Of a stretch of 64,000 nucleotides of DNA, positions 19,375 to 43,160 are shown one piece after another; the first letter of the stretch is position 1; the number at the start of each line of letters is the position of its first letter. Source of the DNA: Thermoleophilia bacterium UBA2241. Lineage in GTDB: Bacteria; Actinomycetota; Thermoleophilia; UBA2241. Made by a program: the position numbers and the translations under genes. Under the pieces are notes generated by a model. The model searched no databases. It was given only the letters and a program-made list of their open reading frames with translations, and was not told the origin of the DNA. Where the stretch lies: positions 38,663-102,662 of the forward strand of contig DDYF01000060.1 of the NCBI GenBank assembly GCA_002347645.1, read 5' to 3'.

Positions 19375-19389
19375 GATGTCCTCCTCGCA

Positions 19390-19433
19390 GAGAATGACGC
19401 GGGCGGGGCTGCAGCCCCGCCCGCGTCATTCTC
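19390..19433. repeat. perfect 44-bp palindrome (22-bp arms) in the aminotransferase-ureohydrolase intergenic gap
   Basis: GAGAATGACGCGGGCGGGGCTGC|AGCCCCGCCCGCGTCATTCTC, reverse complement identical. Confidence 0.9.
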
Positions 19434-19463
19434 TCACGCGACCCCTGCGGGCCGCACGCCGGG

Positions 19464-20855: not shown

Positions 20856-20858
20856 GGG

Positions 20859-23385: not shown

Positions 23386-24918
23386 ATGCGTTACTACGTC
23401 ACCACGCCCATCTACTACGTCAACGCCGAGCCTCACCTCGGGCACGCCTACACGACCATCGCCGCCGACATCCTCGCCCGCTACCACCGCCAGAAGGGCG
23501 ACGACGTCTTCTTCCTCACCGGGACGGACGAGCACGGCACGAAGATCGCCCAGGCGGCCGAGCAGCGCGGGCTCACGCCGCGCGCCCACGTCGACGAGAT
23601 GGCGCCCAAGTTCCGCGAGCTAGCGCGCACGCTCAACGCCAGCAACGACTTCTTCATCCGCACCACCGACCCCGAGCACGAGGCCTTCGTGCAGGGGTTC
23701 GTCGAGAAGCTGCGCGCCGCCGGCGACATCGAGAAGCGCACCTACGGCGGCCTGTACTGCACGCAGTGCGAGGGTTTCTGGTACGAGCGCGACCTGGCGC
23801 CCGACGGCACCTGTCCCGACCACGGGACAAAGCCGACGTGGGTCGAGGAAGAGAACTACTACTTCCTCCTCTCGAAGTACCAGGACCGGCTGAGCGAGTT
23901 CTTCCGCGCCAACCCCGGCTTGGTGAAGCCGAAGTCGCGCTACAACGAGGCGCTGTCGTTCATCGAGCAGGGCCTCGAGGACATCAGCATCAGCCGCTCG
24001 AGCATCACCTGGGGCGTGCCCGTGCCGTGGGACACCGAGCAGGTCATCTACGTGTGGGTCGACGCCCTCATCAACTACCTCTCGGCGCTCACGTACGCGC
24101 GGCCGGGTGAGGACCTCGTTGACCGCTACTGGCCGGTCGTCTACCACCTGCTCGGCAAGGACATCCTCAAGTTCCACGCCGTGATCTGGCCCGCCCTCCT
24201 CTGGAGCGCCGGCTACGAGGCGCCGACGGGCGAGACCATCCACGGGTATCTGTTGATGGGCGGCGAGAAGATGAGCAAGACGCGCGGCAACGTGCTCGAC
24301 CCGTTCGCCGTCATGGAGACCTACGGGCTCGACGCCCTGCGCTTCTACTTGTTCAGAGAGGTGGCGTTCGGGCTCGACGGCACGATATCGCTGGAGGGGT
24401 TCGAGCAGCGTTACACGAACGAGCTCGCCAACGAGCTCGGCAACCTCGTGAGCCGCAGCGTGTCGATGATTGGCAAGTACCGCGAGGGGAGAATCCCTCA
24501 AGCTGGACCTGAGGGTGACGGTTTAGCCGGGGTGGCGGCCGAGGGCGAGGCGATGGTGCGCGCCGCCGGCGCGCACTTCGACGCCGTCGAGATCACGGCC
24601 GCCCTGGAGAGTGTCTGGGAGTACGTGCGGCGCCTCAACAAGCTGGTCGAAGAAGAGGCGCCGTGGAAGCTGGCCAAGGACGAGACGCAGGCCGGGCGCC
24701 TGGACGCCGTGCTGCGTGCCCTGGCGGCCGGCCTGCGTCTCGTCGCCCTGACCCTCTATCCGGTCGTGCCGGACACGGCGGTCGAGATCCTGCGCCGCCT
24801 CGGGCAGCCCAACGGCGATGCCGACCTTCTGCTCGAGGGCGCCGTCTGGGACGGGCTCGTGGCGGCGGCGGTCGACGTCGCTCCGCCGCTCTTCCCGCGC
24901 ATCGAGAAGAGCGCCTGA
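23386..24918 (+). CDS. metG: methionine--tRNA ligase (short form, no C-terminal tRNA-binding domain)
   Basis: HLGHAYTT (HIGH), KMSKTRGN (KMSKS), zinc knuckle CTQCEGF...CPDHG. Confidence 0.92.
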   Translation: MRYYVTTPIYYVNAEPHLGHAYTTIAADILARYHRQKGDDVFFLTGTDEHGTKIAQAAEQRGLTPRAHVDEMAPKFRELARTLNASNDFFIRTTDPEHEAFVQGFVEKLRAAGDIEKRTYGGLYCTQCEGFWYERDLAPDGTCPDHGTKPTWVEEENYYFLLSKYQDRLSEFFRANPGLVKPKSRYNEALSFIEQGLEDISISRSSITWGVPVPWDTEQVIYVWVDALINYLSALTYARPGEDLVDRYWPVVYHLLGKDILKFHAVIWPALLWSAGYEAPTGETIHGYLLMGGEKMSKTRGNVLDPFAVMETYGLDALRFYLFREVAFGLDGTISLEGFEQRYTNELANELGNLVSRSVSMIGKYREGRIPQAGPEGDGLAGVAAEGEAMVRAAGAHFDAVEITAALESVWEYVRRLNKLVEEEAPWKLAKDETQAGRLDAVLRALAAGLRLVALTLYPVVPDTAVEILRRLGQPNGDADLLLEGAVWDGLVAAAVDVAPPLFPRIEKSA

Positions 24919-24940
24919 GCCGGCGCGAGGCGCGCCGCCC

Positions 24941-25744
24941 ATGTCCGACCACAGCGACGTGCGCACGAGCGCCATGCCGACCGGCCTGATCGACTCCCAC
25001 TGCCACCTCGAGCTGCTGCGTGACACCGAGGGTGACCTCGCCGCAGCTTGGCAGACGGGGCTCGAGGCGATCGTGACCATCGGCTTCGACCTCGGCTCGT
25101 CGCGCAAGGCGGCCGCCTTCGCTCGCCGGTACGAGCGCGTGCATGCGGTGGTGGGTCTGTACCCGCACGAGGCCGACAAGCTCGACGACGCGCTGCTCGC
25201 GGAACTCGAGCGGTTGACGCGCGAGCCCAAGGTGGTCGCCGTCGGCGAATGCGGCCTGGACTACTTCCACGATCGCTGTCCGCACGACGTCCAGCGGCGT
25301 GCCTTCTCGGCCCAGATCGACCTGGCCAGGCGCGCCGGCTTGGTGCTCGTCGTTCACACCCGGGAGGCGGCCGCCGACACCATGCGCGTGCTCGCCGAGG
25401 AGGCCGCCGGCCTGACCGTCGTGCTGCACTGCTTCTCGCTCCCCGGCCACGTCGACGAGTGCAACGCGCGCGGCTACTACCAGTCGTTTGCCGGCAACGT
25501 CACGTACAAGAAGGCCGAGGATCTGCGCGCCGCGGCCGCGGCCGTGCGCGACGACCTGCTGCTGGTCGAGACCGACGCGCCCTACCTGACCCCGGTGCCC
25601 CACCGCGGCAAGCCGAACCAGCCGGCCTGGGTGGCGGCCACCGCGGCGGTCGTCGCCGAGGCCCGTGGCTGGACGCTGGAGCGGACTGCCTCGGTCACCA
25701 CGGCCAACGCGCGGCGCGCCTTCGGCCTGCCGGCAGCGGGCTGA
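24941..25744 (+). CDS. tatD: TatD-family metal-dependent hydrolase/DNase
   Basis: IDSHCHLE, VGECGLDY, VVHTREA, ETDAPYL motifs. Confidence 0.85.
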   Translation: MSDHSDVRTSAMPTGLIDSHCHLELLRDTEGDLAAAWQTGLEAIVTIGFDLGSSRKAAAFARRYERVHAVVGLYPHEADKLDDALLAELERLTREPKVVAVGECGLDYFHDRCPHDVQRRAFSAQIDLARRAGLVLVVHTREAAADTMRVLAEEAAGLTVVLHCFSLPGHVDECNARGYYQSFAGNVTYKKAEDLRAAAAAVRDDLLLVETDAPYLTPVPHRGKPNQPAWVAATAAVVAEARGWTLERTASVTTANARRAFGLPAAG

Positions 25745-25747
25745 GCG

Positions 25748-26692
25748 ATGCCCGCCGACCGCGACCGGCCGCCCAGGCCGCGCCCGCTGCACCGCTACGG
25801 CCAGAACCACCTCGTCGACCGCCGCGTGCTCGACGCGATCCTGCGACAGGCCGCGGTGCGGCCCGACGAGGTCGTCCTCGAGGTAGGGGCCGCCGACGGC
25901 CTGCTCACGCGGCCGCTGCTCGAGAGGGCGCGAACCGTGCACGCCTTCGAGGTCGATCGCCGTTACGCGTCGCGTCTTGAGCGGCTGGCCGCCGGGGCGC
26001 CGGGGTTGCGCGTCCATCTCGAGGACGCGCTCAAGGCGCGCCTCGGCGAGCTTGACCCGCAACCGACCGCGCTGGTCGCCAACCTCGCCTACAACATCGC
26101 CATCCCGCTGGTCATGACGACCGTCGCGCAGGTACCCTCGATACGGCGCTGGGCGATCATGGTGCAGAAGGAACTTGGGGAGCGGCTGTTCGCCGTCCCC
26201 GGGACCAAGGCCTACGCCGCGGTGTCGGTGCTCACCCAGTTCAACTGCGAGCTGGAACGGGCGCGGCCGGTGGCGCGCAGCGCCTTCCGGCCGCGCCCGA
26301 ACGTCGAGTCCGCCTTCGTCAGCTTCGCGCGCAGGGTCGCCGCGAGTGACGGAACATGGCTCGTCGGCACGCAACCGCTCGACCGCGACGGCTACGCCGT
26401 CGTCGAGAGGCTCGTCCGCCGCGCCTTCGCCCAGCGGCGCAAGCAGCTCGCGACCTCGCTCGCGGGCGCCGATCCCGGAGCGCCGTCCGTCCCGGCTCCG
26501 GCCGGGGAGGGCGCGGCGCCCGTGACGTCTGGCGTGGGCGCCGCGCCGTCGGGCGGTCACACGATCGGGCGTGCCGACGTGGCCAGGGCCCTGGAGGCGG
26601 TCAGCGCGAGCCCGACGGCGCGTCCCGAGGAGCTTGACCCCGAGCGCTGGCTCGCCTTCGCGCGCGCCTTGGGCTGGCTGGCGACATCGTGA
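25748..26692 (+). CDS. rsmA: 16S rRNA (adenine1518/1519-N6)-dimethyltransferase with Ala/Pro-rich C-terminal extension
   Basis: GQNHLVD, EVGAADGLLT, NLAYNIA motifs. Confidence 0.88.
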   Translation: MPADRDRPPRPRPLHRYGQNHLVDRRVLDAILRQAAVRPDEVVLEVGAADGLLTRPLLERARTVHAFEVDRRYASRLERLAAGAPGLRVHLEDALKARLGELDPQPTALVANLAYNIAIPLVMTTVAQVPSIRRWAIMVQKELGERLFAVPGTKAYAAVSVLTQFNCELERARPVARSAFRPRPNVESAFVSFARRVAASDGTWLVGTQPLDRDGYAVVERLVRRAFAQRRKQLATSLAGADPGAPSVPAPAGEGAAPVTSGVGAAPSGGHTIGRADVARALEAVSASPTARPEELDPERWLAFARALGWLATS

Positions 26693-26708
26693 GAGACGCG
26701 CAACGGGG

Positions 26709-27758
26709 ATGACGGTGGAGATGAACGGCACGCTCGACGCGGTCGAGGTCGCAGCGCCCGCCAAGGTCAACCTTGCGCTGCTCGTCGGACCGCTGCGACC
26801 CGACGGCTTCCACGAGCTCGCCTCCCTGATGGTGCCGGTGACGCTCGGCGATCTGGTCGTCGTGCGGCGCACACCCGGTGAGGACCTCGTCGTCGACTGT
26901 GCGGTGTGCCCCGGCGAGCGGAACCTTGCGGCGCGTATGGTGCGCGAGCTCGAGGCGCGCCTCGAGCGCCGCTTCGAGGTCGCCGTCGACGTGCACAAGC
27001 AGATCCCCGTGGGCGCCGGCCTCGCCGGTGGAAGCTCGGATGCCGCGGCGACGCTCGTCGCGCTCGAGCGTCTCTTCGAGCTCGACCTCTCGCCGCGGTT
27101 GCGCTACGAGGTCGCAGCGGCGGTCGGCTCCGACGTCCCCTTCTTCCTCTGGCCCGGGGCGCAGTTGGCCATGGGACGCGGGCAGCTGCTCAAGGATGTC
27201 GGCCTGGTGGCCCCGCTCAGCTTGGTGATCGCCGTCCCCGAGGTGTCGCTCTCCACGGCCGCCGTCTACGGCTGGAGGGACGAGGACGTCCGGGTGACCT
27301 TGCCCGACTTCGTTCCTCGGGCGCGGATGCTGTCGAGCCGCGTCGCCGCCGCGCGCACCCTGCATGACATCGCCGCGCTGGTCGAGAACGACCTCGAGGC
27401 GAGCGTCGTCGCGCGCCGCCCCGAGGTGGGCGCCCTGCGCGACCGCCTGCTCGCCGAGGGGGCGGCTGCGGCGGCCATGACCGGCAGCGGGTCCGCCGTC
27501 TTCGGCCTCTTCACCGACGTCGAGGCCGCGAGCCGCGCGCGATCGCGGCTGCTCGCGGCCTCACGCGACGCCTCGCCGGACGCGGGCGGCGTCTTGCCGC
27601 CCGGGCGCGTCTTCTGCGTCACCGACCTGCAGGCCGCCCCGGAGGACGGCGCGCACCCGTGGGCCGGCGTGCGGCCCGCGGCGCCCTCGGGCGCTCCCCG
27701 GCGCAAACCGCGACCGGCTCGCCGGCGGCCCTCGGGGCGCCCTCCCGGCGCAAGTTGA
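26709..27758 (+). CDS. ispE: 4-diphosphocytidyl-2-C-methyl-D-erythritol kinase with Pro/Arg-rich C-terminal tail
   Basis: PAKVNLAL, GHMP motif PVGAGLAGGSSDAAA; rsmA-ispE synteny. Confidence 0.88.
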   Translation: MTVEMNGTLDAVEVAAPAKVNLALLVGPLRPDGFHELASLMVPVTLGDLVVVRRTPGEDLVVDCAVCPGERNLAARMVRELEARLERRFEVAVDVHKQIPVGAGLAGGSSDAAATLVALERLFELDLSPRLRYEVAAAVGSDVPFFLWPGAQLAMGRGQLLKDVGLVAPLSLVIAVPEVSLSTAAVYGWRDEDVRVTLPDFVPRARMLSSRVAAARTLHDIAALVENDLEASVVARRPEVGALRDRLLAEGAAAAAMTGSGSAVFGLFTDVEAASRARSRLLAASRDASPDAGGVLPPGRVFCVTDLQAAPEDGAHPWAGVRPAAPSGAPRRKPRPARRRPSGRPPGAS

Positions 27759-27784
27759 CCCCCGCGCCGGGCGGCTGGTATACA
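27755..27784 (+). promoter_or_regulatory. candidate promoter TTGACC-18nt-TATACA for the LKR operon (overlaps ispE stop)
   Basis: -35 TTGACC 27755-27760, -10 TATACA 27779-27784; would give a ~310-nt leader. Confidence 0.4.
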
Positions 27785-27830
27785 CGGGTAGAGAGCGATC
27801 GACGCACCGTCCCCGGATGGGGCGGTGACT

Positions 27831-28052
27831 TCCCGAGGGGGTGTGATAGCTGACCAGGCGGCAGTCGGTCGGTCGTCACGCGCCTGGTGGCATCGTCCCA
27901 TCGCGTTCGCGCTGATCTCCCCTCGAGCTCGACCGTCGCGGACGTCGTCTGTCCACTGCGTGGCGCTTGCGCGGCGTCCACGCGCACCGCTCCCGACCCG
28001 CCTGCCCGTCATGTTCTCGCGCGACCCTTTTCGGGAGGTGTGATAGCTGACC
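27831..28052 (+). repeat. two copies of GAGG(G)GTGTGATAGCTGACC in the LKR leader (27831-27855 and 28029-28052)
   Basis: 15-nt core GTGTGATAGCTGACC identical in both copies, 197 nt apart. Confidence 0.85.
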
Positions 28053-28102
28053 GACCTTCCAGCTGATCGCAGCACGTCATCATCCGCACTGGAGGGCTGA
28101 TC

Positions 28103-29422
28103 ATGCGCAACGTAGGTATCCGCAGGGAGGACAAGGACGTCTGGGAGGCCCGCGTCCCGCTCGTTCCCGGCGACGTGAAGGATCTGATCGCGCGCGGCGA
28201 CGTGGCGGTCGCTGTGCAGCCGTCGGCGCAGCGCGTGTTCGCCGACCGCGAGTTCGCCGGCGCCGGCGCTGCCGTCGCCGAAGATCTCGGCGACTGCGAC
28301 ATCGTGCTCGCCGTCAAGGAGATCCCTGTCGACTTCTTCCGGGCTGGCAAGACGTACGTCTTCTTCTCGCACACGATCAAGGGGCAGCCGTACAACATGG
28401 CGATGCTGCGCCGCATGATGGAGCTCGGCTGCCAGCTTCTCGACTACGAGCGTATCGTCGACGAGCGCAACGCACGCCTCATCTCGTTCTCGCGCTTCGC
28501 CGGCCTTGCGGGCGCCGTCGACACGCTCTGGGCGCTGGGCCGGCGCCTCGAGTGGGAGGGTCTGTCGCCGAACCCGTTCGCCGAGCTGGAGCAGACGTAC
28601 ACCTACGGCACGCTCGACGGCGCGCTCGACGCGGTCGCCCGGTGCGAAGAGCGCCTCGCGGCCCACGGCGCGCCCGAGGCGCTCGGCCCCCTGGTGATCG
28701 GCGTGGCTGGTGACGGGCGCGTCTCACGCGGCGCCCAGGAGGTCATCGCCGCGCTCGATCCCCTGGTGGTGGCGCCGGACGAGCTCGAGACGGTCGCCGC
28801 CGGTCGGCCCTCGGGTCGCCGGGCGTACGAGGTCGTCTTTCGCGAAGAGGACATGGTCGCGCGGAAGCCGGAGGAGCCCTCGGCCGCCGGCGCCTTCGAC
28901 GTCCGCGACTACTACGAGCACCCGGAGCGCTACGCAGGCAGGTTCGCGCGCTTCCTGCCCATGCTGCCGGTCCTGATCAACGCGATCTACTGGGAGGAGC
29001 GCTACCCGCGCCTGGTCACCAAGGCCGACGCGCGCGCTCTCTGGGCGGGTGGCGCGCGCCCGCGCCTGACGGTGATCGGCGACGTGAGCTGCGACATCGG
29101 CGGCTCCGTCGAGCTCACCGTCAAGGAGACGCACGTCGGTGACCCCGTCTACGTGTACGACCCGCTCACGGACGAGGTCCACGACGGGTTCGCCGGCCGG
29201 GGCCCGGTCGTCCTCGCCGTCGGCAACCTGCCCTGCGAGCTGCCGCGCGACGCCTCCGAGACCTTCAGCTCGGTGCTCGCCACTTTCATGCCGGCGCTCG
29301 TCGCCGCCGACTTCTCGGCTCTCTTCGACGAGCTCGCCCTGCCGGACGAGCTCAGGAGGGCGCTGATCCTGCACCACGGCGAGCTCACACCGGACTACGC
29401 CTACTTGAGGAGCTTCGTATGA
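28103..29422 (+). CDS. lysine-ketoglutarate reductase / saccharopine dehydrogenase (L-lysine-forming), AlaDH/PNT fold, LKR-domain-like
   Basis: GIRREDKDVWEARVPLVP, KTYVFFSHTIKGQPYNM, EHPERYAGRF, INAIYWEERYPRLV, CDIGGSVE, GNLPCELP, all matching the LKR half of eukaryotic AASS. Confidence 0.75.
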   Translation: MRNVGIRREDKDVWEARVPLVPGDVKDLIARGDVAVAVQPSAQRVFADREFAGAGAAVAEDLGDCDIVLAVKEIPVDFFRAGKTYVFFSHTIKGQPYNMAMLRRMMELGCQLLDYERIVDERNARLISFSRFAGLAGAVDTLWALGRRLEWEGLSPNPFAELEQTYTYGTLDGALDAVARCEERLAAHGAPEALGPLVIGVAGDGRVSRGAQEVIAALDPLVVAPDELETVAAGRPSGRRAYEVVFREEDMVARKPEEPSAAGAFDVRDYYEHPERYAGRFARFLPMLPVLINAIYWEERYPRLVTKADARALWAGGARPRLTVIGDVSCDIGGSVELTVKETHVGDPVYVYDPLTDEVHDGFAGRGPVVLAVGNLPCELPRDASETFSSVLATFMPALVAADFSALFDELALPDELRRALILHHGELTPDYAYLRSFV

Positions 29423-30798
29423 AGAGGGTTCTCGTGCTCGGCGCGGGCATGGTCGCGCGCCCGCTCGTCTCCTGCCTGCTGGCGCGCGACGACCTTGAAG
29501 TCACCGTGGCCGACGTCGACAGTGGGCGGGCGGCCGCGCTGACTGCCGGCGCTCCCCGCGGCCGCGGGGTCGCGCTCGACGCCCGCGACACGGCGGCGGT
29601 GGGCGCGCTGCTGGACGACTGCGACCTGCTGGTGAGCCTGCTGCCGCCTGAGTTCGAGCCCGCGGTCACGCGGCTCGCCGTGGCCCGACGCAGGAGCATG
29701 GTGAGCGCGTCGCCGCGCGGCGAGGCCGGGATGGACGCGCTCGCCGGCGAGGCACACGCCGCCGGCATCGCGCTCATGCCCGAGGTTGGCCTGGATCCGG
29801 GTCTCGACCACATGGCGATCGCCCGCATGGTCGCGCGCGTGAGGGCGCGCGGCGGCCGGGTGCTGTCCTGCCGCTCCTACTGCGGCGGGCTTCCCGCGCC
29901 CGAGGCGAACACCAACTGCTGGGACTACAAGTTCTCCTGGAACCCCAAGGGCGCGGTGGAGGCCTCGCTCTTCGACGCCCGCTATCTGCGTGACGGGCGC
30001 GAGGTCTACGTCCCCAACACGGAGCTCTTCACGAAGCACTGGCTGGTCCCGATCCCCGGCTTCGACGAGCTCGAGGCGCACTTCAACGGCGACTCACTGC
30101 CGTACGTGGGCATCTACGGTCTGGACGGCGTGCGCGACCTCGTGCGCGCCACGCTGCGCTACCCGGGCTGGGCGTTCACGATGCGCCAGGTGCAGAAGCT
30201 CGCCTACAACTCGACCACCGAGCTGCCGGACGCCCCGGCGACGTACGCCGCCCTCACGCGCCGGCTCGCCGGCCTCGCCGAGGGCGAGGACCTGGTCACC
30301 GGCCTGGCCCGCGTGCTCGACGTCGACGCGCAGTCGGCGGTGATCGAGCGCCTCGTCTGGCTGGGTCTCACCGCCGACGACCCCATCGTCTGGAGCGACG
30401 GCCAGGAGCGCACGCCGCTCATGGCGCTCGCGGAGCGGATGTTCGAGAAGATGATGTTCGCCCCGGGCGAGCGCGACCTCTCGGTGCTGCACAACGAGGT
30501 CGTCGCGGCGCTCCCGGCCGGCGGATGCGAGCGCTCGACGGCGACGCTCGTCGCGTACGGCGACCCCGGCGGCGACTCGTCCATGGCGCTCACCGTCGGC
30601 ACCCCCGCGGCGATCGCCGCCACGTTGCTGCTCGACGGCCGGATCCCCGAGACGGGCCTGGTGATGCCCGTCAAGCCCCACATCTACGAACCGATCCTCG
30701 ATGCGATGGCCGCCCGGGGCGTCGTGTTCGACGAGCGGACGGAGCCGCTGCCCGTCTCCGGCAGCGGCTCCGCGTCCGCACAGGAGGCGATGTCATGA
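29419..30798 (+). CDS. saccharopine dehydrogenase (L-glutamate-forming) family protein, paralog A
   Basis: VLVLGAGMVARP Rossmann, GLDPGLDHM, SYCGGLPAPE, YKFSWNP; ATGA overlap with LKR stop. Confidence 0.75.
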   Translation: MKRVLVLGAGMVARPLVSCLLARDDLEVTVADVDSGRAAALTAGAPRGRGVALDARDTAAVGALLDDCDLLVSLLPPEFEPAVTRLAVARRRSMVSASPRGEAGMDALAGEAHAAGIALMPEVGLDPGLDHMAIARMVARVRARGGRVLSCRSYCGGLPAPEANTNCWDYKFSWNPKGAVEASLFDARYLRDGREVYVPNTELFTKHWLVPIPGFDELEAHFNGDSLPYVGIYGLDGVRDLVRATLRYPGWAFTMRQVQKLAYNSTTELPDAPATYAALTRRLAGLAEGEDLVTGLARVLDVDAQSAVIERLVWLGLTADDPIVWSDGQERTPLMALAERMFEKMMFAPGERDLSVLHNEVVAALPAGGCERSTATLVAYGDPGGDSSMALTVGTPAAIAATLLLDGRIPETGLVMPVKPHIYEPILDAMAARGVVFDERTEPLPVSGSGSASAQEAMS

Positions 30799-32129
30799 AG
30801 AAGGTCCTGGTCCTCGGCGCGGGCATGGTGTCGCGCCCGCTGGTGCGGTACCTGCTCGACCACGGGGGCATCGAGGTCACGGTCGCCACGCGGACCGTTG
30901 CCAAGGCGCAGGCGGTGCTCGAAGGGCACGAGCGCGGAGCGGCCGTCGCCCTCGACGCGCGCGACGACGAGCGGGTACGCCGCCTCGTCGCGGCGGCCGA
31001 CCTGACCGTGAGCCTGCTGCCGCCGGCGATGCACGTCGCCGTCGCGAAGCACGCCCTCGAGGCGCGGCGGCACTTCCTGACGACCTCGTACGTGAGTCCG
31101 GAGATGAAGGCGCTGGACGGCGCCGTGCGCGAGGCGGGCCTCACCTTCCTGAACGAGGTCGGTCTCGACCCCGGCATCGACCACATGTCTGCTCTGCGCA
31201 TCATCCACGGCATCCAGGGCCGTGGCGGCAAGGTCGTCTCGTTCCGCTCCTACTGCGGCGCGCTGCCGGCGCCCGAGGCCGACACCAACCCGTGGGGCTA
31301 CAAGTTCTCCTGGGCACCGCGAGGGGTGATCCTCGCGGGGCGCAACAGCGCGCGCTACCTCGAGGACGGCGAGGAGCGGACGCTCCCCGGCGAGCGTCTC
31401 TTCTCGCGCCACTGGCTGGTCGACGTGAAGGGCTTCGGCGAGTTCGAGGCCTACTACAACCGCGACTCCATGCCCTACGTCGAGACGTATGGGCTGGCCG
31501 GCGTGCGCGACATGTTCCGCGCCACCCTGCGGTACCCCGGGTGGAGCCACACCATGCAGAAGCTCGCCGACCTGGGGTACTTCGACCTCGGCGACCTCGC
31601 TGAACCTCCCGTCACGTACGCCGGTCTGACCGCGCTGCTGGCTCAGGTGGCGGCCGGCGACGACCTGGCCGCGAGGGTGGCCGAGGTCCTCGACGTCGAC
31701 CCGTCGTCGGAGGCGATCACGCGCATGTCGTGGCTCGGCCTGCTCACCGGCGACCCGATCCCGTGGGACGACCTCCCGACCCGTTCGCCGCTCGACGCGC
31801 TCGCCTCGCGCATGCTCGCGTTGATGCCGCTCGAGAAGGGCGAACGCGACCTCTGCGTCATGCAGCACGAGATCATCGGCGAGTACGCCTCCGGGACGCG
31901 CGAGACGGTCACGTCGACCCTCGTGTCCTTCGGCGAACCGGACGGCGATTCGGCCATCGCGCGGACCGTCGGGCTGCCGGCCGCGATCGGCGCAGCGATG
32001 GTCCTCGACGGCCGCATCGACGAGCCCGGCGTCTTGATCCCGGTCGCCCCGGCGGTCTACGACCCCATCCTCGACGAGCTCGCCGCCTCCGCCGGGGTGG
32101 TCTTTCGCGAGCGCGCCACCGTGGTCTGA
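30795..32129 (+). CDS. saccharopine dehydrogenase (L-glutamate-forming) family protein, paralog B
   Basis: Same motif set (GLDPGIDHM, SYCGALPAPE, YKFSWAP, TLRYPGW); ATGA overlap with paralog A. Confidence 0.75.
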   Translation: MKKVLVLGAGMVSRPLVRYLLDHGGIEVTVATRTVAKAQAVLEGHERGAAVALDARDDERVRRLVAAADLTVSLLPPAMHVAVAKHALEARRHFLTTSYVSPEMKALDGAVREAGLTFLNEVGLDPGIDHMSALRIIHGIQGRGGKVVSFRSYCGALPAPEADTNPWGYKFSWAPRGVILAGRNSARYLEDGEERTLPGERLFSRHWLVDVKGFGEFEAYYNRDSMPYVETYGLAGVRDMFRATLRYPGWSHTMQKLADLGYFDLGDLAEPPVTYAGLTALLAQVAAGDDLAARVAEVLDVDPSSEAITRMSWLGLLTGDPIPWDDLPTRSPLDALASRMLALMPLEKGERDLCVMQHEIIGEYASGTRETVTSTLVSFGEPDGDSAIARTVGLPAAIGAAMVLDGRIDEPGVLIPVAPAVYDPILDELAASAGVVFRERATVV

Positions 32130-32210
32130 CCAGGGCGCGGTGGTACAATCACCTGCCGCGCGCGGCCGCGGCGTGTGCCGCGGGGCCGCCCCGGCGCGAC
32201 GAGAGCACGG

Positions 32211-32285
32211 TGGGGCGTAGCCAAGTGGTAAGGCACCGGGTTTTGGTCCCGGCATCCGGAGGTTCGAATCCTCCCGCCCCAGCCA
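32211..32285 (+). tRNA. tRNA-Gln (anticodon TTG), CCA encoded
   Basis: Cloverleaf: acceptor TGGGGCG/CGCCCCA, anticodon stem CCGGG/CCCGG with loop TTTTGGT, T-arm GGAGG-TTCGAAT-CCTCC. Confidence 0.85.
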
Positions 32286-32331
32286 CCGCCCTCGCCGCGC
32301 ACACACTCTGGGCAACGACACAGGTGGGCAC

Positions 32332-33753
32332 ATGGCCGACGAGGTGAGCACCGAGTCCAGCAGGTTGGCGATCGTCATCCTCGCCGCGGGCCTCGGCACG
32401 CGGATGAAGTCGGACGTGCCCAAGGTGCTGCACGAGGTGTGTGGCCGGCCGATGCTCGCCTATGTCATGGACGCAGCTCTCGGCCTCTCACCCGAGCGTA
32501 TCGTGGTTGTCACCGGCCCCGAGCAGGACGCCATCCCCGAGATCCTTCCCTCGGGCTGCGAGCGCGCCATCCAGACGGAGCGTCGCGGTACCGGCGACGC
32601 CGTGCGTGCCGGCCTCGAACCTCTGGTCGGCTTCGCCGGTGACGTCGTCGTTCTCATGGGCGACGCGCCGCTCGTCGACGGGCCGTTCGTGAGCGGCCTC
32701 GTCGCCGCCCACCGCGCGGCGGGTTCGCGCGCGACTGTGGCCACGGCCGTCCTCGACGAGCCGGGGCACTACGGGCGTGTGGTCCGTGCCGCCGGCGGGG
32801 GTGTCGAGCGCATCGTCGAGGCGCGCGACACGTCGCCCGACGAGCTCGCGCTCACCGAGGTGAACACCGGCTTCTACGTGTTCGACGCGACGCTCCTTCG
32901 CGGCATCCTGCCGCGCCTGCGGCCCGACAACACCCAGGGCGAGCTCTACCTCACCGACGCCGTGCACCTGGCGATCGCCGACGGGGTGCCGGTGACGGGC
33001 TTCGTCGTCGCCGACGCCGAGGTGATGCTGGCCATCAACTCCCGGGTGGAGCTGGCCGACGTGAACGCGATCATGCGCCGGCGCCTGCTCAGGCGACTGA
33101 TGCTCGCCGGCGTCACCGTCGAGGACCCGCAGACCACCTACGTCGACTGGGGCGTCGAGGTGGGGCGCGACACCGTCGTGCTGGCCGACACACACCTGCT
33201 GGGGCGCACGACGGTCGGCGCGGCGTGTGAGATCGGCCCCGGTTCCTTCCTGCGCAACGCGTTCGTCGGTGACCGGGCGAGCGTGGCGCGCTCGCACCTC
33301 GTGGACTGCGTGGTCGGCTCGGGCTGCTCGGTCGGCCCGTTCGCCTCGATCCGTCCCAACACGGTGCTGGCCGAGGGCGCCCGTGCGGGTACCTTCGTCG
33401 AGATCAAGAACAGCCGTATCGGCGAGGGGAGCAGGGTGCCGCACCTGAGCTACGTCGGCGACGCCGTCGTGGGCCGCAACAGCAACATCGCGGCGGGCAA
33501 CATCACCGCCAACTACGACGGCGACGAGAAGCACCCGACGACGATCGGCAACGACGTGCGCACCGGAAGCGACACGACCTTCGTGGCGCCGGTCACCGTC
33601 GGCGACGGCGCCTACACGGCGGCCGGCTCGGTGATCACCGAGGACATCCCGGCGGGCGCGCTCGGCGTAGCGCGTGCCCGGCAGCAGAATCTGCCGGGGT
33701 ACGCCCAGCGCCGTAGCGCCCGCCACCGGGAGCCGCAGGAAGGGCAGAGCTGA
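32332..33753 (+). CDS. glmU: bifunctional UDP-GlcNAc pyrophosphorylase / GlcN-1-P N-acetyltransferase
   Basis: LAAGLGTRMKSDVPKVLH, C-terminal left-handed beta-helix hexapeptide repeats. Confidence 0.9.
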   Translation: MADEVSTESSRLAIVILAAGLGTRMKSDVPKVLHEVCGRPMLAYVMDAALGLSPERIVVVTGPEQDAIPEILPSGCERAIQTERRGTGDAVRAGLEPLVGFAGDVVVLMGDAPLVDGPFVSGLVAAHRAAGSRATVATAVLDEPGHYGRVVRAAGGGVERIVEARDTSPDELALTEVNTGFYVFDATLLRGILPRLRPDNTQGELYLTDAVHLAIADGVPVTGFVVADAEVMLAINSRVELADVNAIMRRRLLRRLMLAGVTVEDPQTTYVDWGVEVGRDTVVLADTHLLGRTTVGAACEIGPGSFLRNAFVGDRASVARSHLVDCVVGSGCSVGPFASIRPNTVLAEGARAGTFVEIKNSRIGEGSRVPHLSYVGDAVVGRNSNIAAGNITANYDGDEKHPTTIGNDVRTGSDTTFVAPVTVGDGAYTAAGSVITEDIPAGALGVARARQQNLPGYAQRRSARHREPQEGQS

Positions 33754-33826
33754 GCCCGGGCCGGCGCCGTCGCTCCCTCTGGTAAACTCACCTTTCGGTC
33801 GTCGTAACGTCGAGGAAGGGATAACC

Positions 33827-34822
33827 GTGGCCGACTCGTCCTGCTGCGTCATCGCCACCCAGAAGCGGCTCATGCTCGTCGCGGGGCGCAGCAACCCGGC
33901 GCTCGCCGAGAAGATCGCCGACAAGCTCGACATCACGCTGGGCAAGGTGCTGCTCAAGACGTTCGCCAACGGCGAGATCTACGCGCGCTACGAAGAGAAC
34001 ATCCGTGGCGCCGACCTCTTCATCGTCCAGTCGCCGTCAGACCGCCTGAACGACGAGGTCATGGAGCTCCTCATCCTCATCCAGGCCGCCAAGCTGGCCT
34101 CGGCGAGGCGCGTGACGGCCGTCACGCCGTACTACCCGTACGCGCGCCAAGACAAGAAGAGCGCCGCTCGCGAGCCCATCACGGCGCGCCTCATGGCGAC
34201 CCTGCTCGAGGCGGCCGGCGCCGACCGCGTCCTGACCATGGACCTGCACCAGGGGCAGATCCAGGGCTTCTTCGAGATCCCGGTCGACCACATGACGGCG
34301 GTGCCCATGCTCGCCGATTACTTCCGCTTCAAGGGCTTCGACCCCGCCGACCTCGTGGGCGTCTCCGCCGACGCCGGCGGCGTGAAGCTCGTCAAGCGCT
34401 TCATCAACCACCTGCCGGGCGCCGACCTCGCCGTTCTCACCAAGATGCGTCCCGAGCACAACCGCGCCGAGACGATGCACTTCATCGGCAACGTACAGGG
34501 CAAGGTCGCGATCGTGGTGGACGACATGATCGATACCGCCGGGTCGATCACCAACGCCGTCGACACGCTGTACCAGAACGGCGCCCGCGAGGTCTACGTC
34601 GTCGCGACCCACGGCATCTTCAGCCCCCCGGCGCTCGAGCGTATCGCGGCCTCGCCGGTCAAGGAGGTCGTCGTCACCGACACGCTGACCGTCGAGCTCG
34701 GCCCCGCGGACGACAAGATCAAGATCCTCAGCGTCGCCGACACGCTCGCGGCGACCATCCGGAACGTGTTCGAGGACAAGTCGGTGAGCGAGCTGTTCGC
34801 CGGCGAGAACCAGCTCTTCTAG
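33827..34822 (+). CDS. prs: ribose-phosphate pyrophosphokinase
   Basis: GTG start with GAGGAAGGG RBS; PRPP-binding VDDMIDTAGS, glmU-prs synteny. Confidence 0.88.
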   Translation: MADSSCCVIATQKRLMLVAGRSNPALAEKIADKLDITLGKVLLKTFANGEIYARYEENIRGADLFIVQSPSDRLNDEVMELLILIQAAKLASARRVTAVTPYYPYARQDKKSAAREPITARLMATLLEAAGADRVLTMDLHQGQIQGFFEIPVDHMTAVPMLADYFRFKGFDPADLVGVSADAGGVKLVKRFINHLPGADLAVLTKMRPEHNRAETMHFIGNVQGKVAIVVDDMIDTAGSITNAVDTLYQNGAREVYVVATHGIFSPPALERIAASPVKEVVVTDTLTVELGPADDKIKILSVADTLAATIRNVFEDKSVSELFAGENQLF

Positions 34823-34834
34823 CAGGAGACCACC

Positions 34835-35500
34835 ATGGAGAAAGTCAAGCTCGTCGTGCAGCACCGCGAGGCGGCCGGCAGCCGCGCCGCCCGCAGGCTG
34901 CGCCGTGAGGGCCGCATCCCCGGCGTCATGTACGGGTACGGCAAGCCCGCGACGCTGCTCTCGGTCGAGCCGACCGCGCTGCGCGCGGCGCTCTCGACCG
35001 GCGCCGGCACTCACGCCGTCCTCGAGGTCGTCTTCGAGGACCAGAAGAAGGTCCATCGCGCCATCGTCAAGGAGATGGAGCTCGACCGCGTCAAGCACAC
35101 GGTGACGCACATCGACCTCGAGGAGGTCCGCCTCGACGAGGTCATCGAGACCAAGGTCGCGGTGCACTTCGAGGGCCTGGCCAAGGGTGTGAAGATGGGC
35201 GGCATGGTCGACGAGACGACGCGCGAGGTCACCCTCAAGGGGATCGTCACGAGCATCCCCGAGCACCTGGTGGTGGACATCAGCGAGCTGGGTATCGGTG
35301 ACGCCGCGCACGTCGGCGACCTGCAGGTCCCCGAAGGGCTCGAGGTGCTGGACGATCCCGAGACCGTGCTCTGCAGCGTCCTGCTGCCGCGTAAGGCCGA
35401 GGTCGAGGAAGAGGCCGAGGAGGGCGTCGAGGAGGCGGCCGAAGAGGCGCCTGCCGAGCCCGAGGTCATCTCGAAGCACAAGGAAGAAGAAGAGGACTGA
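34835..35500 (+). CDS. rplY: 50S ribosomal protein L25 / general stress protein Ctc, acidic C-terminal tail
   Basis: L25 beta-barrel N-domain plus Ctc-type C-domain; prs-ctc-pth synteny. Confidence 0.85.
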   Translation: MEKVKLVVQHREAAGSRAARRLRREGRIPGVMYGYGKPATLLSVEPTALRAALSTGAGTHAVLEVVFEDQKKVHRAIVKEMELDRVKHTVTHIDLEEVRLDEVIETKVAVHFEGLAKGVKMGGMVDETTREVTLKGIVTSIPEHLVVDISELGIGDAAHVGDLQVPEGLEVLDDPETVLCSVLLPRKAEVEEEAEEGVEEAAEEAPAEPEVISKHKEEEED

Positions 35501-35506
35501 GGCGTG

Positions 35507-35545
35507 GCGCGGGGCCGGCCGGGCGTGCGCCGGCCGGCCCCGCGC
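35507..35545 (+). terminator. stem-loop terminator after rplY
   Basis: GCGCGGGGCCGGCCGG-gcgtgcg-CCGGCCGGCCCCGCGC, 16-bp perfect stem, followed by CGCCTTTGCC. Confidence 0.6.
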
Positions 35546-35587
35546 CGCCTTTGCCCGCCTCTCGCCCCGACTACCACGTCACACCTC

Positions 35588-36181
35588 ATGGCCCTCCGTT
35601 CGCAGCCTCACAGGCACGCCGACCTCCTCGTCGTCGGCCTGGGCAATCCCGGACCGGCGTACGAGAACACGCGGCACAACGCCGGCTACCTGGTCGTGCA
35701 CGAGCTGGCGCGCCGGCACGGCGTCCCACGCGCGAAGCGCGGCTACGAGGGGCGCTTCGCGATGGGCCGCATCGCCGGCCGGGACGTCGCCCTGCTGCAG
35801 CCGACCACGTGGATGAACGACTCGGGCCGCAGCGTGGCCGCCGCCCTGCGTGCGCTCAAGCTGCCGCTCGAAAGATTGCTGGTCGTACACGACCACATCG
35901 ACCTGCCGTTCGGCAGGCTGCGCCTCGCGCCCGGCGGCGGCTCCGGCGGGCACAACGGCCTCAAGAGCGTCATGGGGCTGATCGGCGCCGACTTCCACCG
36001 CCTGCGGGTGGGCGTCGACCGCCCCGCGAGCTACGACCCGGACGTCGTCGCCGACTACGTCACGGCGCCCTTTGCCGAGAGCCGGACGGAGGTCGAGGAG
36101 CTGGTCGCGCGCGCGACGGACGCCGTGGAGCTCTGGATAGAGCTCGGCATGGACGAGGCCGCGACCCGGGTCAACGGCTGA
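35588..36181 (+). CDS. pth: peptidyl-tRNA hydrolase
   Basis: LLVVGLGNPGPAYENTRHNAGY, GGHNGLKS. Confidence 0.9.
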   Translation: MALRSQPHRHADLLVVGLGNPGPAYENTRHNAGYLVVHELARRHGVPRAKRGYEGRFAMGRIAGRDVALLQPTTWMNDSGRSVAAALRALKLPLERLLVVHDHIDLPFGRLRLAPGGGSGGHNGLKSVMGLIGADFHRLRVGVDRPASYDPDVVADYVTAPFAESRTEVEELVARATDAVELWIELGMDEAATRVNG

Positions 36182-36215
36182 CGCGGCGACCCTGCGGCCC
36201 TGCGGCGCGGGCCTC

Positions 36216-37553
36216 CTACAGGCCCGACTTGGCCAACGCCACCGCGATGCGGTCCTGGGCGCGGTGCGCGTACCAGGTGTTGACGGCGTCGCCGTTCATG
36301 AGCATGGCGACGATCACCCTGTGACCGGCCGCGCTCGTGACGTATCCGGAGAGGTTGCTGGCGATACGCAGGTGCCCCGTCTTGCCGCGGAAGTTGCCCT
36401 CGGCCGCGGTGTTGCGCATGCGCTTCTTGAGTGTGCCGTCACGGCCGGCGATGGTGAGCGAACGATAGAAGGAGTCGTAGTCTCCGCGCGCGGTCATGAC
36501 GCGCAGGAGCTTGACGATGCCTGCCGCCGACAGCCGGTTCTGGTAGCTCAGGCCCGAGCCGTCGGCGAGGCGGAACATCTCGTCGGTGAGCCCGAAGGCC
36601 CGCATGGTCGCGCGCGAGACGCGGAGGCCTGCGGCCGTGGTGCCTGCGGCGCGGAAGTCTTTGCCGAGGCCCTTCACCAGCGTCTCGGCGAAGAAGTTGT
36701 CGCTCTGCTTGTTCAGCGTCTTGAGCAGGGTCTTGAGCGGCGCCGACTCGACGGTGACCGTGAGGTACGCCCCGTCGGGCACGGCGCCGCGGCGCGCCCC
36801 GCCGGTGACCTCGATGCCGGCGTCTTCGAGCGCGTCGAGGAGCCGCCGCGCCGCGTAGCGCGCGGGATTGTCGACGCGCTCGCCGTTGCGCAGACCCTCG
36901 TTGACGGAGAGCGCCGAGAGCGGGCCGCAGTCGTCCTTAAGACCCGGCTTCCAGCTCGAGACGGTACGGCGGTCATCGAACCACGTGTCGTCGCCCACGA
37001 CGCGTCCCACGATCTTCGTGACCCCGATCGCCTTGAGGTGGGCCACGAACGTGAGCGGCGAGGCCGTCCTGATGTGCAGGCGGTTCTTCTGGAAGGCCGG
37101 CATGGAGAGGCTGGGGTCGCCGTAGCCCTTGACGTAGATGCTGCCCCGCACGACGCCGATGTCGAAGGGCTGGCTCGCATACCTCGCCGGCAAGTAGAGC
37201 TCGGTCTTGAAACGGTGGTCGGGCCCCCAGCGGAACAGAGCCGTGGTGGCCGTGACGAGCTTCATGTTGGAGGCCGGGGCGAGGAGCGTCCTCGTGTTGC
37301 GCGCGTACGTGGGCCGGCGGGCGCCGTCGGTCCAGACCGAGACGGCGGTGCGCGCGCCGCCGAACCCGTTGTCGGTGAGGATGCCGGTGATACGCGCGCC
37401 GATGCCGGCGTGGGCCGGCGCGACCGCGCCGGCCCACGCCGGAGCGATGACGGCCAGCGTGAGGGCGACGAGCAGGACGAGTCGCGTGAGGGTGAGCCGG
37501 CGAAGGTGGCGCATGCGCATACCTTCGCCCTCGTGCCCGCGAGGCCTGCTCAT
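36216..37553 (-). CDS. D-alanyl-D-alanine carboxypeptidase/endopeptidase, PBP4 (peptidase S13) family, secreted
   Basis: SxxK ASNMK, SDN KQSDNF, KTG GKTGHL, DGSGLS; signal peptide after M12 (alternative start 37520). Confidence 0.8.
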   Translation of the reverse strand: MSRPRGHEGEGMRMRHLRRLTLTRLVLLVALTLAVIAPAWAGAVAPAHAGIGARITGILTDNGFGGARTAVSVWTDGARRPTYARNTRTLLAPASNMKLVTATTALFRWGPDHRFKTELYLPARYASQPFDIGVVRGSIYVKGYGDPSLSMPAFQKNRLHIRTASPLTFVAHLKAIGVTKIVGRVVGDDTWFDDRRTVSSWKPGLKDDCGPLSALSVNEGLRNGERVDNPARYAARRLLDALEDAGIEVTGGARRGAVPDGAYLTVTVESAPLKTLLKTLNKQSDNFFAETLVKGLGKDFRAAGTTAAGLRVSRATMRAFGLTDEMFRLADGSGLSYQNRLSAAGIVKLLRVMTARGDYDSFYRSLTIAGRDGTLKKRMRNTAAEGNFRGKTGHLRIASNLSGYVTSAAGHRVIVAMLMNGDAVNTWYAHRAQDRIAVALAKSGL

Positions 37554-38275
37554 CGGGCCGCCTTGCGGACGCTGACGATGAGATCGGCGAGATCGTTGAC
37601 GGCGCGGCTGAGCCCCTTGCGGGTGATGGTCTGCGTGGTCGCGTTCCAGCCGCCCGCGTTGTAGGCCCGCACGAGCTTGCCGTAGTACTGGTGGACGTAC
37701 GTGGCCGCGCGGACCGCCGGCGCCCGGGCCCCTGACCGCACCTGGATGCCGTTGAAGCGCACCCAGCTGCGGTGCTCGCCCTTCTCGTCGGTCCGCGCGT
37801 TGGCGGCCTGCTCGTGCCGCGCGTGCATGCGGGCTTCGCGGGCGCTGCTGTCGGTGTGCGTCGGGTTGCAGATGTCGGCGTAGTAGTGCGAGAGCAGACC
37901 GAAAGTGTAGCTGGCCCCGCGCGGGTCGTTGGCGGCCAGCCGGCGAGCAGCGTTGACGAACAGCTTCTGGACGCGGTCGGGAGCGTCGCCGTAGGACTGC
38001 GCGCCCCAGACGTCGTAGACGTGGTGGTAGGTGTCGCGCAACTTCGTGTCGGGGTTGTCGGTGGCGCGCAGCGCGGTGCCCAGGCGGAGCCAGTCGCAGC
38101 CGCGCTTCTCGGCCAGCCGATTCGCTTCGAACAGGATCCAGTCGTGGGTGCCGAAGCCGTTACCCCCGTCGCCACCGTTGGACCACGCGCCGGCCGGCGC
38201 CGGAATGACGGCCGGGAGCCACAGCGTGACGACGGCCGCGAGCGTGGCCAGTACGAGGCGGGAGGCCATGGTCAT
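37550..38275 (-). CDS. secreted zinc-dependent phospholipase C / S1-P1 nuclease-fold protein
   Basis: Signal peptide then mature W...THDWI (Trp1/His14 Zn ligands of B. cereus PLC), HYYADICNPTH matching PLC HYLGDVNQPMH; stop overlaps PBP4 start (ATGA). Confidence 0.55.
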   Translation of the reverse strand: MTMASRLVLATLAAVVTLWLPAVIPAPAGAWSNGGDGGNGFGTHDWILFEANRLAEKRGCDWLRLGTALRATDNPDTKLRDTYHHVYDVWGAQSYGDAPDRVQKLFVNAARRLAANDPRGASYTFGLLSHYYADICNPTHTDSSAREARMHARHEQAANARTDEKGEHRSWVRFNGIQVRSGARAPAVRAATYVHQYYGKLVRAYNAGGWNATTQTITRKGLSRAVNDLADLIVSVRKAAR

Positions 38276-38415
38276 CGGTCTGCTCCGTCGGTGTGACGCA
38301 TCGCTGCCCATTCTATCGTCAGGCGCTGACGGACCTTCGACCGGGCGAGCAGGTACAATCGCCGCACCCCGGCGGGCACGTCCCGGCGGGGTGTCGGCCA
38401 TGGGCGGAGGTCCAG

Positions 38416-42051
<3,636 letters not shown>

Positions 42052-42083
42052 GTCCTGACGTCTACCCCCTGGAGAGAGACCAC

Positions 42084-43118: not shown

Positions 43119-43160
43119 ACCCTGCGTGAACGGCCGGCCCTCCCGTCCCGTGCGACAGGG

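Follow-up and report, generated by a model that had tools for sequence, protein, structure and literature searches.

A split saccharopine operon with a second, divergent saccharopine dehydrogenase paralog in a Thermoleophilia bacterium

We describe here a three-gene operon for lysine metabolism that lies within a 64,000-nt stretch of DNA (the window) from a soil actinobacterium of the Thermoleophilia, whose genome has a GC content of 70 to 73%. Its genes encode a lysine-ketoglutarate reductase (LKR) followed by two saccharopine dehydrogenases (SDHs), and the first of these two, SDHa, has lost a saccharopine-binding arginine and therefore probably does a different job. The three genes are as follows.

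28103..29422, + strand: LKR, 439 aa, by homology a monofunctional lysine-ketoglutarate reductase of the aminoadipate-semialdehyde synthase (AASS) type, with the chemistry of a saccharopine dehydrogenase (L-lysine-forming)
29419..30798, + strand: SDHa, 459 aa, with the Pfam domains Sacchrp_dh_NADP and Sacchrp_dh_C
30795..32129, + strand: SDHb, 444 aa, by homology a canonical saccharopine dehydrogenase (L-glutamate-forming); its length is counted from an internal ATG of the listed open reading frame, which begins at 30525

As a preliminary description of this DNA had reported, the genes share one strand and overlap in ATGA tetranucleotides at 29419-29422 (LKR/SDHa) and 30795-30798 (SDHa/SDHb), which can be read directly in the sequence, and all the peptide motifs quoted in that description are present in the translations. 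Shine-Dalgarno-like sites stand 7 to 8 nt upstream of the three starts (GGAGGG at 28091-28096 for LKR, GAGGAG at 29407-29412 for SDHa, and AGGAGG at 30782-30787 for SDHb), and the GC content at third codon positions (0.88 to 0.95) is that of real genes of the same genome. The three-gene arrangement is not a chance pattern, and LKR, SDHa, and SDHb constitute one operon that extends the ordinary split saccharopine module of prokaryotes.

The first gene carries the Pfam domains AlaDh_PNT_N (2.5e-23) and AlaDh_PNT_C. Its best match in the PDB is the LKR domain of human AASS (8dda, 1e-72), with residues 5-437 of 439 aligned to human residues 27-464, and yeast Lys1 (4e-11) and alanine dehydrogenase (1.5e-7, residues 4-104) match its N-terminal third only. 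In the human domain, K93 and H111 form the catalytic pair and saccharopine is bound by R39, R146, K114, and Q116 (PMC13174811). The equivalent residues of LKR, K72, H90, R17, R125, K93, and Q95, respectively, are all invariant in an alignment of 16 prokaryotic homologues, and the catalytic Lys/His pair corresponds to K77/H96 in yeast numbering. The alignment to the human domain also takes in the C-terminal region, where one paper (PMC9490328) places a helix that AASS LKR needs for its activity. LKR was also considered as an alanine dehydrogenase or transhydrogenase and rejected as either, with NCBIfam scores of 33 bits for alaDH (cut-off, 392) and 19.6 bits for PntA (cut-off, 383). By homology, gene 1 is an AASS-type LKR, as its motifs had suggested. 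One difference from the human domain concerns cofactor choice and not membership in the reaction class: human Arg267 and Ser266 contact the 2'-phosphate of NADPH (PMC13174811), while S266/R267 align to R247/E248 of LKR. Since E248 is invariant in the 16 prokaryotic LKRs, we infer that the whole prokaryotic group prefers NADH to NADPH.

Both downstream genes carry Sacchrp_dh_NADP and Sacchrp_dh_C (Pfam, 5e-63 and 3.5e-80), and they are 52% identical over their full length, with DNA-level repeats 1373 to 1376 nt apart that confirm a tandem duplication. The best PDB matches of SDHb are Magnaporthe saccharopine reductase (6e-94) and yeast Lys9 (1.3e-93), followed by the human AASS SDH domain (8e-76); in bits, it scores 318 and 317 to the two fungal enzymes and 259 to the human domain. 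SDHa matches the same structures less closely (Lys9, 1.7e-67; AASS SDH, 2.8e-65; 219 and 231 bits to the fungal enzymes and 224 to the human domain). An AlphaFold2 model of SDHa (pLDDT, 94; pTM, 0.90) superposes on the human AASS SDH domain 5l78 with template modeling (TM) scores of 0.88/0.93, the fold of the family, and scores 0.65 against lysine 6-dehydrogenase and 0.67 against carboxyspermidine dehydrogenase. SDHb keeps Y100, R224, R247, D126, and C155, and its NRDS, TLRY, TTSY, and GLDPG motifs are all present. Genes 2 and 3 are, by homology, glutamate-forming SDHs of the Lys9/AASS type.

It could be argued that these are not lysine enzymes at all but an alanine dehydrogenase or transhydrogenase followed by carboxy(nor)spermidine, homospermidine, or lysine 6-dehydrogenase enzymes. 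The Pfam superfamilies are indeed held in common (AlaDh_PNT and PF16653), and PF16653 members are often misannotated as saccharopine dehydrogenase (PMC10413350 and PMC10599626). However, in addition to the alaDH and PntA scores far below their cut-offs and the alanine dehydrogenase structures that reach residues 4-104 only, neither SDHa nor SDHb finds a sequence match among carboxyspermidine dehydrogenases or homospermidine synthases even at E<=10, and the TM scores of the SDHa model to these enzymes are 0.55 to 0.68, compared with 0.84 to 0.88 (TMq) for SDH structures. At the level of homology this explanation is already refuted, and we give it next to no chance. The reading of the locus as a split saccharopine pathway holds: alanine dehydrogenase and carboxyspermidine or homospermidine enzymes, the placement that the preliminary description had named as fatal to it, are excluded, and the best PDB matches are AASS LKR for gene 1 and Lys9, saccharopine reductase, and AASS SDH (1e-64 to 1e-94) for genes 2 and 3.

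Among the closest known counterparts of the operon is the bifunctional LKR/SDH of humans, other animals, and plants, AASS, whose two halves are homologous end to end to LKR and SDHb, which shares with them the catalytic Lys/His pair and the carboxylate-binding arginines of both domains, and in which both the order of reactions and the placement of LKR before SDH are the same. AASS differs in being fused where the window has separate polypeptides, in having the NADPH-contacting Arg267 where prokaryotic LKRs have an invariant Glu, and in lacking any counterpart of SDHa. Among bacteria, split saccharopine lysine catabolism in Ruegeria (Silicibacter) pomeroyi is reported as experimentally verified (Serrano et al., FEBS Lett 2012, and Neshich et al., ISME J 2013, as cited in PMC4334477, PMC9490328, and PMC7253579), with monofunctional LKR and SDH enzymes and an lkr gene at SPO3307. 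By these descriptions, to which our comparison is limited and which do not involve sequence, R. pomeroyi has one SDH and a separate lysine 6-dehydrogenase route, in contrast to the two SDHs of the window. None of the papers searched reports a tandem SDH paralog.

The preliminary description had called this route sporadic in bacteria, which did not stand up. In a scan of one genome per species, at least 597 genomes proved to encode a relative of LKR, and they are spread over many phyla of bacteria and archaea, among them Chloroflexota, Thermoplasmatota, Ignavibacteria, Zixibacteria, Bipolaricaulota, Cloacimonadota, Acidobacteriota, and Myxococcota. In 66 of the 80 best loci, to which all locus counts refer, an SDH follows LKR directly on the same strand; six loci are cut by a contig end, six have LKR without an adjacent SDH (L003, L004, L050, L051, L072, and L075), and the remaining two are L026 and L031. 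An SDHb-type enzyme is the sole SDH beside LKR in 65 loci other than the window, and outside locus L002 the single SDH is always nearer to SDHb (about 400 to 480 bits) than to SDHa (about 230 to 330 bits). The LKR and SDHb pair is an ordinary, genomically common module, to which SDHa is the new part. The pair is common in uncultured archaea and many candidate bacterial phyla, and Thermoplasmatota or other archaeal metagenome-assembled genomes (MAGs) contribute ten of the loci (L005, L012, L013, L023, L028, L043, L053, L056, L058, and L069).

The neighbors of the pair in these genomes tie it to lysine: piperideine-6-carboxylate (P6C; aminoadipate-semialdehyde) dehydrogenase stands beside it in four loci (NF050084, 793 bits; cut-off, 730), lysine 2,3-aminomutase is nearby in four (TIGR03820, 785 bits), and class-III aminotransferases are among the neighbors in about 16. 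In five Chloroflexota loci (L006, L021, L029, L049, and L068) a class-III aminotransferase follows LKR-SDH directly, and the only one of these that was scanned, in L006, is of the ornithine-aminotransferase type (TIGR01885, above cut-off). Such neighbors also bear on the direction of the pathway. Both reactions are reversible, and the operon could run biosynthetically, from the semialdehyde and glutamate to saccharopine and on to lysine and 2-oxoglutarate, with the two SDHs serving synthesis and degradation; the slightly greater nearness of the window SDHb to fungal Lys9/saccharopine reductase (318 bits) than to human AASS (259 bits) and its fungal-like NADP motif would agree with this. However, LKR is of the AASS type over its full length and not of the fungal Lys1 type, genes for homocitrate, homoaconitase, and aminoadipate-reductase steps are absent from the recurrent neighbors in the 80 loci, and the neighbors that do recur are P6C dehydrogenase, lysine 2,3-aminomutase, and aminotransferases, joined in relatives by ferredoxin oxidoreductases. 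Moreover, the alpha-aminoadipate pathway known from prokaryotes works with LysW carriers and is not known to pass through saccharopine. The biosynthetic direction, which had been raised in the preliminary description, is disfavored by these neighbors in other genomes, and we regard it as very improbable.

SDHa itself has a narrow distribution. In a collection of 5.8 billion proteins, its clade comprises about 14 clusters at 72 to 85% identity, with more distant relatives at 53 to 59% (P0135-P0138 and P0142), and an exhaustive search of 1.84 billion representatives at 50% identity returned a single representative for the whole SDHa group (772 bits), the next match scoring 462 bits. In a neighbor-joining tree, in which the deep branching order is approximate, the SDHa clade has a bootstrap of 100 and its union with the more distant relatives one of 97, and both are nested among SDHb-type sequences of Thermoleophilia; SDHa therefore arose by duplication within the lineage, followed by fast divergence, and not by the import of a distant family. 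The LKR-SDHa-SDHb arrangement occurs in one of the 80 genome loci, L002, an uncultured Thermoleophilia MAG whose synteny with the window is complete between about 16 kb and 38 kb. The same order of LKR, an SDHa-type gene, and SDHb is repeated in three further unrelated contexts (L086, L088, and L089), and L090 and L091 have the order ispE-SDHa-[7-kb inverted cluster]-LKR-SDHb-tRNA-Gln-glmU, with SDHa still within 7 kb. In at least five contexts, SDHa has thus remained with LKR and SDHb. Comparisons of orthologues among the window, L082, and L091 gave dN/dS values of 0.24 to 0.25 for SDHa, 0.26 to 0.28 for SDHb, and 0.28 to 0.35 for LKR, with housekeeping neighbors in a similar range; SDHa has been under strong purifying selection since the duplication, and its dN/dS is the lowest of the three genes.

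Some of these contexts contain further genes of interest. The more distant trios of L086 and L088 lie near ArgR-family repressors (L086, 8137-8619; L088, 1-9936), and that of L088 also near an alanine dehydrogenase, an amino-acid ABC transporter, an Octopine_DH-family gene, an Ala_racemase_N enzyme dependent on pyridoxal phosphate (PLP), and a PLP decarboxylase, neighbors that hint at basic-amino-acid or opine metabolism. In L090 (1749-8390) and L091 (9412-16205), close relatives whose MetG is 97% identical to that of the window, the 7-kb inverted cluster between SDHa and LKR-SDHb encodes an aldehyde:ferredoxin oxidoreductase, a three-subunit 2-oxoacid:ferredoxin oxidoreductase, a GltD-like NAD(P)H oxidoreductase, a ThiS-like protein, and ferredoxins; it could carry out a ferredoxin-linked oxidation of aminoadipate semialdehyde and 2-oxoadipate. 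Such a cluster was looked for in the window and is absent from it.

What sets SDHa apart is its substrate pocket, which we compared using family alignments of 123 and later 339 members, numbered as in the Magnaporthe enzyme (1E5Q). SDHa itself did not come up in the homologue search because the sequence that stands for its 90% cluster is a fragment of 52 aa. In the human SDH domain, cryo-electron microscopy places saccharopine mainly in the grip of Arg703 and Arg726, with Asp604 and Pro605 in contact with the nicotinamide carboxamide and Asp512 with the adenosine of NADH (PMC13174811); human numbers were mapped as chain index plus 429 and checked at three anchors, Y490, D512, and D604. A HMMER alignment equates Arg703 with the Arg of the NRDS motif (Magnaporthe R224) and Arg726 with that of TLRY (R247), and D126-P127 is the counterpart of Asp604 and Pro605. 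Combined quantum and molecular mechanics (QM/MM) work on 1E5Q has the glutamate carboxylate hydrogen bonded to Arg224 and Tyr78, with Tyr100 beside the glutamate amine (PMC6264447). The SDHa clade differs at about 23 positions whose conservation elsewhere reaches 85% or more, with replacements that include H81E, T97S, Y100P, N121P, A134I, F151C, P167C, G169D, S175N, R177M/K, V179A, N185F, G216D, Y221H, R224G, H361N, R396L, and L400T. Gly224 is present in all 14 members of the clade, with R247 kept. Position 100 is Pro in the window SDHa and in 12 of the 14 members, and Tyr in 102 of 104 and 141 of 149 other homologues, and V101R adds an arginine that is invariant in the clade. The window SDHa, with Gly224 and Phe185, therefore has neither an equivalent of Arg703 nor Tyr100.

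Other conserved core residues are preserved. SDHa retains the GxGxxG glycines, D126-P127, H131, C155, K171-F-S-W174, R243, and R247, and in an alignment of 19 SDHa-type sequences R247, D126-P127, and the dinucleotide-binding glycines are invariant. This pattern bears on the idea that SDHa is a noncatalytic or regulatory partner, which would either pair with SDHb as a heterodimer or tether it to the tetramer of LKR in imitation of the fused AASS. Such a role would suit the loss of substrate-binding residues, the strict linkage to LKR and SDHb, the ATGA translational coupling, which suggests matched expression, and the human enzyme, in which a dimeric SDH domain is joined to a tetrameric LKR (PMC13174811). 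However, the invariance of G8 and G10 (GAGMVARP in the window), D126-P127, H131, C155, and KFSW would be unusual for a pseudoenzyme, the gene has the lowest dN/dS of the three, and in L090 and L091 it is transcriptionally separate from LKR-SDHb, which shows that coupling is not obligatory. We hold a noncatalytic or regulatory role to be quite improbable.

The rest of the family also bears on the lost arginine. In the 339-sequence alignment, R224 goes with N185 in 236 sequences. Among the 25 non-SDHa sequences without R224, 22 have an arginine at position 185, and only four Arg185 occur in the much larger R224 group, an either/or pattern which suggests that both side chains reach the same carboxylate site. 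We found no mention of this covariation in the literature consulted on the family. An SDH with the arginine moved from 224 to 185 is the sole SDH beside LKR in L041. Only the SDHa clade, P0135, P0136, and P0158 lack a basic residue at both positions among the 339 sequences, and without an arginine at either, SDHa is better regarded as a member of the family by descent than filed as a functional saccharopine dehydrogenase. Of the proposals made at the outset, that of a different substrate for one copy gained real support here.

That the family tolerates a move of this arginine, as the 22 sequences including L041 show, can also be turned around to suggest that SDHa is a genuine saccharopine dehydrogenase isozyme in which the clade-invariant Arg101 replaces Arg224, the two copies differing in kinetics, cofactor, or regulation; the intact fold and core residues would allow this. 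Outside the SDHa clade, however, Arg101 occurs in four unrelated sequences (P0275, P0293, P0346, and P0362), each of which also has R224, and it is therefore no documented substitute for that residue. Moreover, Tyr100 has been lost too, and some 23 near-invariant positions have changed together, far beyond a simple swap. A difference in cofactor would fit the ends of the beta2 strands in the window, where SDHa reads VADVD, acidic like human Asp512, and SDHb reads VATRT, like the VACRT of the NADPH-using fungal enzymes, its arginine aligning with the NADH-contacting Asp512 of the human domain and with fungal Arg34. These motifs fit a split between NAD (SDHa) and NADP (SDHb) in this genome, and to that extent a cofactor difference, as initially suggested, may stand. 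In sister genomes, however, SDHb reads VADVE, the same acidic type as SDHa, and cofactor choice is therefore not what defines the two paralogs; we rejected it as the general reason for having two SDHs. Taken with the other evidence, an isozyme seems unlikely to us.

Our preferred explanation, to which we assign a probability of roughly 0.6, is that SDHa is an active, NAD(P)-dependent, neofunctionalised paralog that performs the same lysine-derived C6 imine or amine chemistry without a glutamate partner. In the scheme we propose, LKR would condense L-lysine with 2-oxoglutarate and reduce the imine to saccharopine, which SDHb would oxidize to glutamate and 2-aminoadipate 6-semialdehyde, in equilibrium with P6C. 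SDHa would keep the nicotinamide-binding scaffold and the C6 imine chemistry, would no longer clamp the carboxylate held by Arg224, and would act on a lysine-derived imine or amine that has no glutamyl moiety. The constant linkage of SDHa to LKR and SDHb is most simply read as a sign that SDHa acts on what these two enzymes produce, and it would most plausibly reduce the P6C or semialdehyde imine supplied by SDHb to pipecolate or to a new N6-substituted lysine; reduction of P6C to pipecolate would involve the same carbon as the reverse SDH reaction. Candidate reactions are thus P6C to L-pipecolate, condensation of aminoadipate semialdehyde with a different amine to give an undescribed N6-substituted lysine, and a lysine 6-dehydrogenase-like activity, and it is doubtful that any single one of them, taken by itself, is the right one. 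That a new glutamate-independent C6 imine reductase or dehydrogenase activity arose from an SDH within one soil actinobacterial lineage is a tentative proposal, with somewhat less than an even chance of being correct.

Several points weigh against our explanation. The data establish the gene identities, the history of the duplication, the selection, the lost residues, and the linkage of the genes; the catabolic direction, catalysis by SDHa, and, above all, its substrate are inferred, and everything about the substrate is read from residue patterns. Arg101 could take over from the lost arginine in the way that Arg185 does in other subfamilies. The assignment of Arg224 to the alpha-carboxylate of glutamate rests on the QM/MM paper, and the human paper assigns no carboxylate to each arginine; if Arg224 instead holds the aminoadipate end, the half-site lost in SDHa is the other one. 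R224 is retained by P0137, P0138, and P0142, which belong to the more distant trios, and therefore the loss of the arginine postdates the duplication and was not the original reason for keeping two copies. Within the 64-kb window, there is no P6C dehydrogenase, pipecolate enzyme, or lysine transporter. Finally, mutations of Y99, D126, and C154 in yeast Lys9 are said, in work by Vashishtha et al., to cause only modest losses, and single residues may therefore not be essential.

The immediate surroundings of the operon are delimited by two further features.

27759..28102, + strand: spacer between ispE and LKR, 344 nt, the presumed promoter or leader region
32211..32285, + strand: tRNA-Gln(ttg), identified by ARAGORN and Rfam, the downstream boundary of the module and part of a conserved tRNA-Gln-glmU-prs block

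The tRNA starts 81 nt past the SDHb stop codon and had been read as compatible with horizontal acquisition, an idea that we abandoned, as tRNA-Gln precedes glmU likewise in L082, L090, and L091, with the SDHb-tRNA-Gln-glmU order conserved in relatives, the GC content is flat across the locus and matches the flanks, and no att-like direct repeats were found at the tRNA-Gln locus. In mycobacteria, too, ksgA-ispE and tRNA-Gln-glmU-prs adjoin, and the position of the tRNA is a matter of conserved synteny. One flank (window 1-7344) is a ribosomal-protein cluster with secY, adk, map, and rpoA, and the other (window 32332-45679) contains glmU, prs, rplY, pth, mfd, and eno; most of these names were assigned by eye from translations, and those from glmU to pth are backed by Pfam matches in L082, which is syntenic here. 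With housekeeping genes on both sides, the operon lies in the conserved chromosomal backbone and not in an island.

The comparison with L091 nevertheless suggests movement among relatives. Over window positions 23386-32129, protein identity falls from 97% for MetG, 92% for RsmA, and 87% for IspE to 74 to 78% for LKR, SDHa, and SDHb, and dS rises about threefold, from 0.19-0.34 to 0.49-0.59 for the saccharopine genes, a signature of recombination or replacement. Gene order differs as well, and the saccharopine module has evidently been exchanged or rearranged here between related Thermoleophilia lineages.

Directly after ispE lies a strong hairpin (27815-27905; -56.7 kcal/mol, z -5.6) that is conserved in L082 (about 9770-9850), L091 (about 7860-7940), and L090 (about 230-300), with pair-preserving changes as judged by eye. 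In this genome only, its 5' arm, GG[G/A]GGTGTGATAGCTGACC, recurs 197 nt downstream, immediately ahead of the ribosome-binding site of LKR, as a 19-mer present at 27837-27855 and 28034-28052 of the spacer. The hairpin could be a terminator or attenuator, a novel RNA, or a scar of rearrangement, with a putative role in regulating the operon. A known riboswitch or leader RNA upstream of LKR was considered and rejected: at gathering thresholds Rfam matched the two tRNAs and no other element, 27600-28200 contained nothing credible even at E<=1, and no sigma-70 promoter or terminator consensus was found in 27500-32500.

Farther upstream, on the - strand at window 18412-21338, an agmatinase-family ureohydrolase (TIGR01230, above cut-off), a class-III aminotransferase, and an AsnC/Lrp regulator form a block that is kept in L082 about 7 kb upstream of the operon, and any link of this block to the saccharopine genes is unproven. 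Its aminotransferase (19464-20855) was considered as a pathway partner and set aside, being only 25 to 29% identical to those linked to LKR-SDH and fitting no NCBIfam equivalog. A tblastn search for P6C dehydrogenase and lysine 2,3-aminomutase across the 64-kb window gave no match.

Among known enzymes, fungal LYS9 and Magnaporthe saccharopine reductase (1E5Q and 2AXQ) are the best sequence matches of both SDHa and SDHb and have the same three-domain fold, but they are biosynthetic and use NADPH, and the window SDHa is without their Tyr100, Arg224, and Arg177. SDHa also has a superfamily in common with the PF16653 carboxyspermidine, carboxynorspermidine, and carboxyaminopropylagmatine dehydrogenases and L-lysine 6-dehydrogenase (LysDH), which share the chemistry of SDH, an NAD(P)H-dependent reductive condensation of a semialdehyde with an amine or its reverse, and in which a few signature residues are known to retune the amine partner (PMC10599626). 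These switched enzymes are distant from SDHa, with no match at E<=10 except for LysDH (1e-8) and TM scores of 0.65 to 0.68; SDHa is a recent offshoot of a true SDH and not a member of the switched clades.

Our findings show the split saccharopine module to be spread far more widely among uncultured bacteria and archaea than the few characterized cases would indicate, and they suggest that in SDHa it has given rise to what would be a clean and datable case of neofunctionalisation, with one duplication, one lineage, strong constraint, and defined pocket changes, including the loss of an arginine that is otherwise kept or swapped to a second position in the rest of the family. The prediction that follows is that SDHa is poor on saccharopine compared with SDHb and that Gly224Arg together with Pro100Tyr would restore activity. 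SDHa may thus provide a handle on how the amine-partner site is retuned in this superfamily. If its product is pipecolate or a new lysine derivative, this would have a bearing on osmoprotection and nitrogen handling in Thermoleophilia, and if the proposed new activity is real, the operon would be a three-step route from lysine to an osmolyte or specialized metabolite and not simple catabolism.

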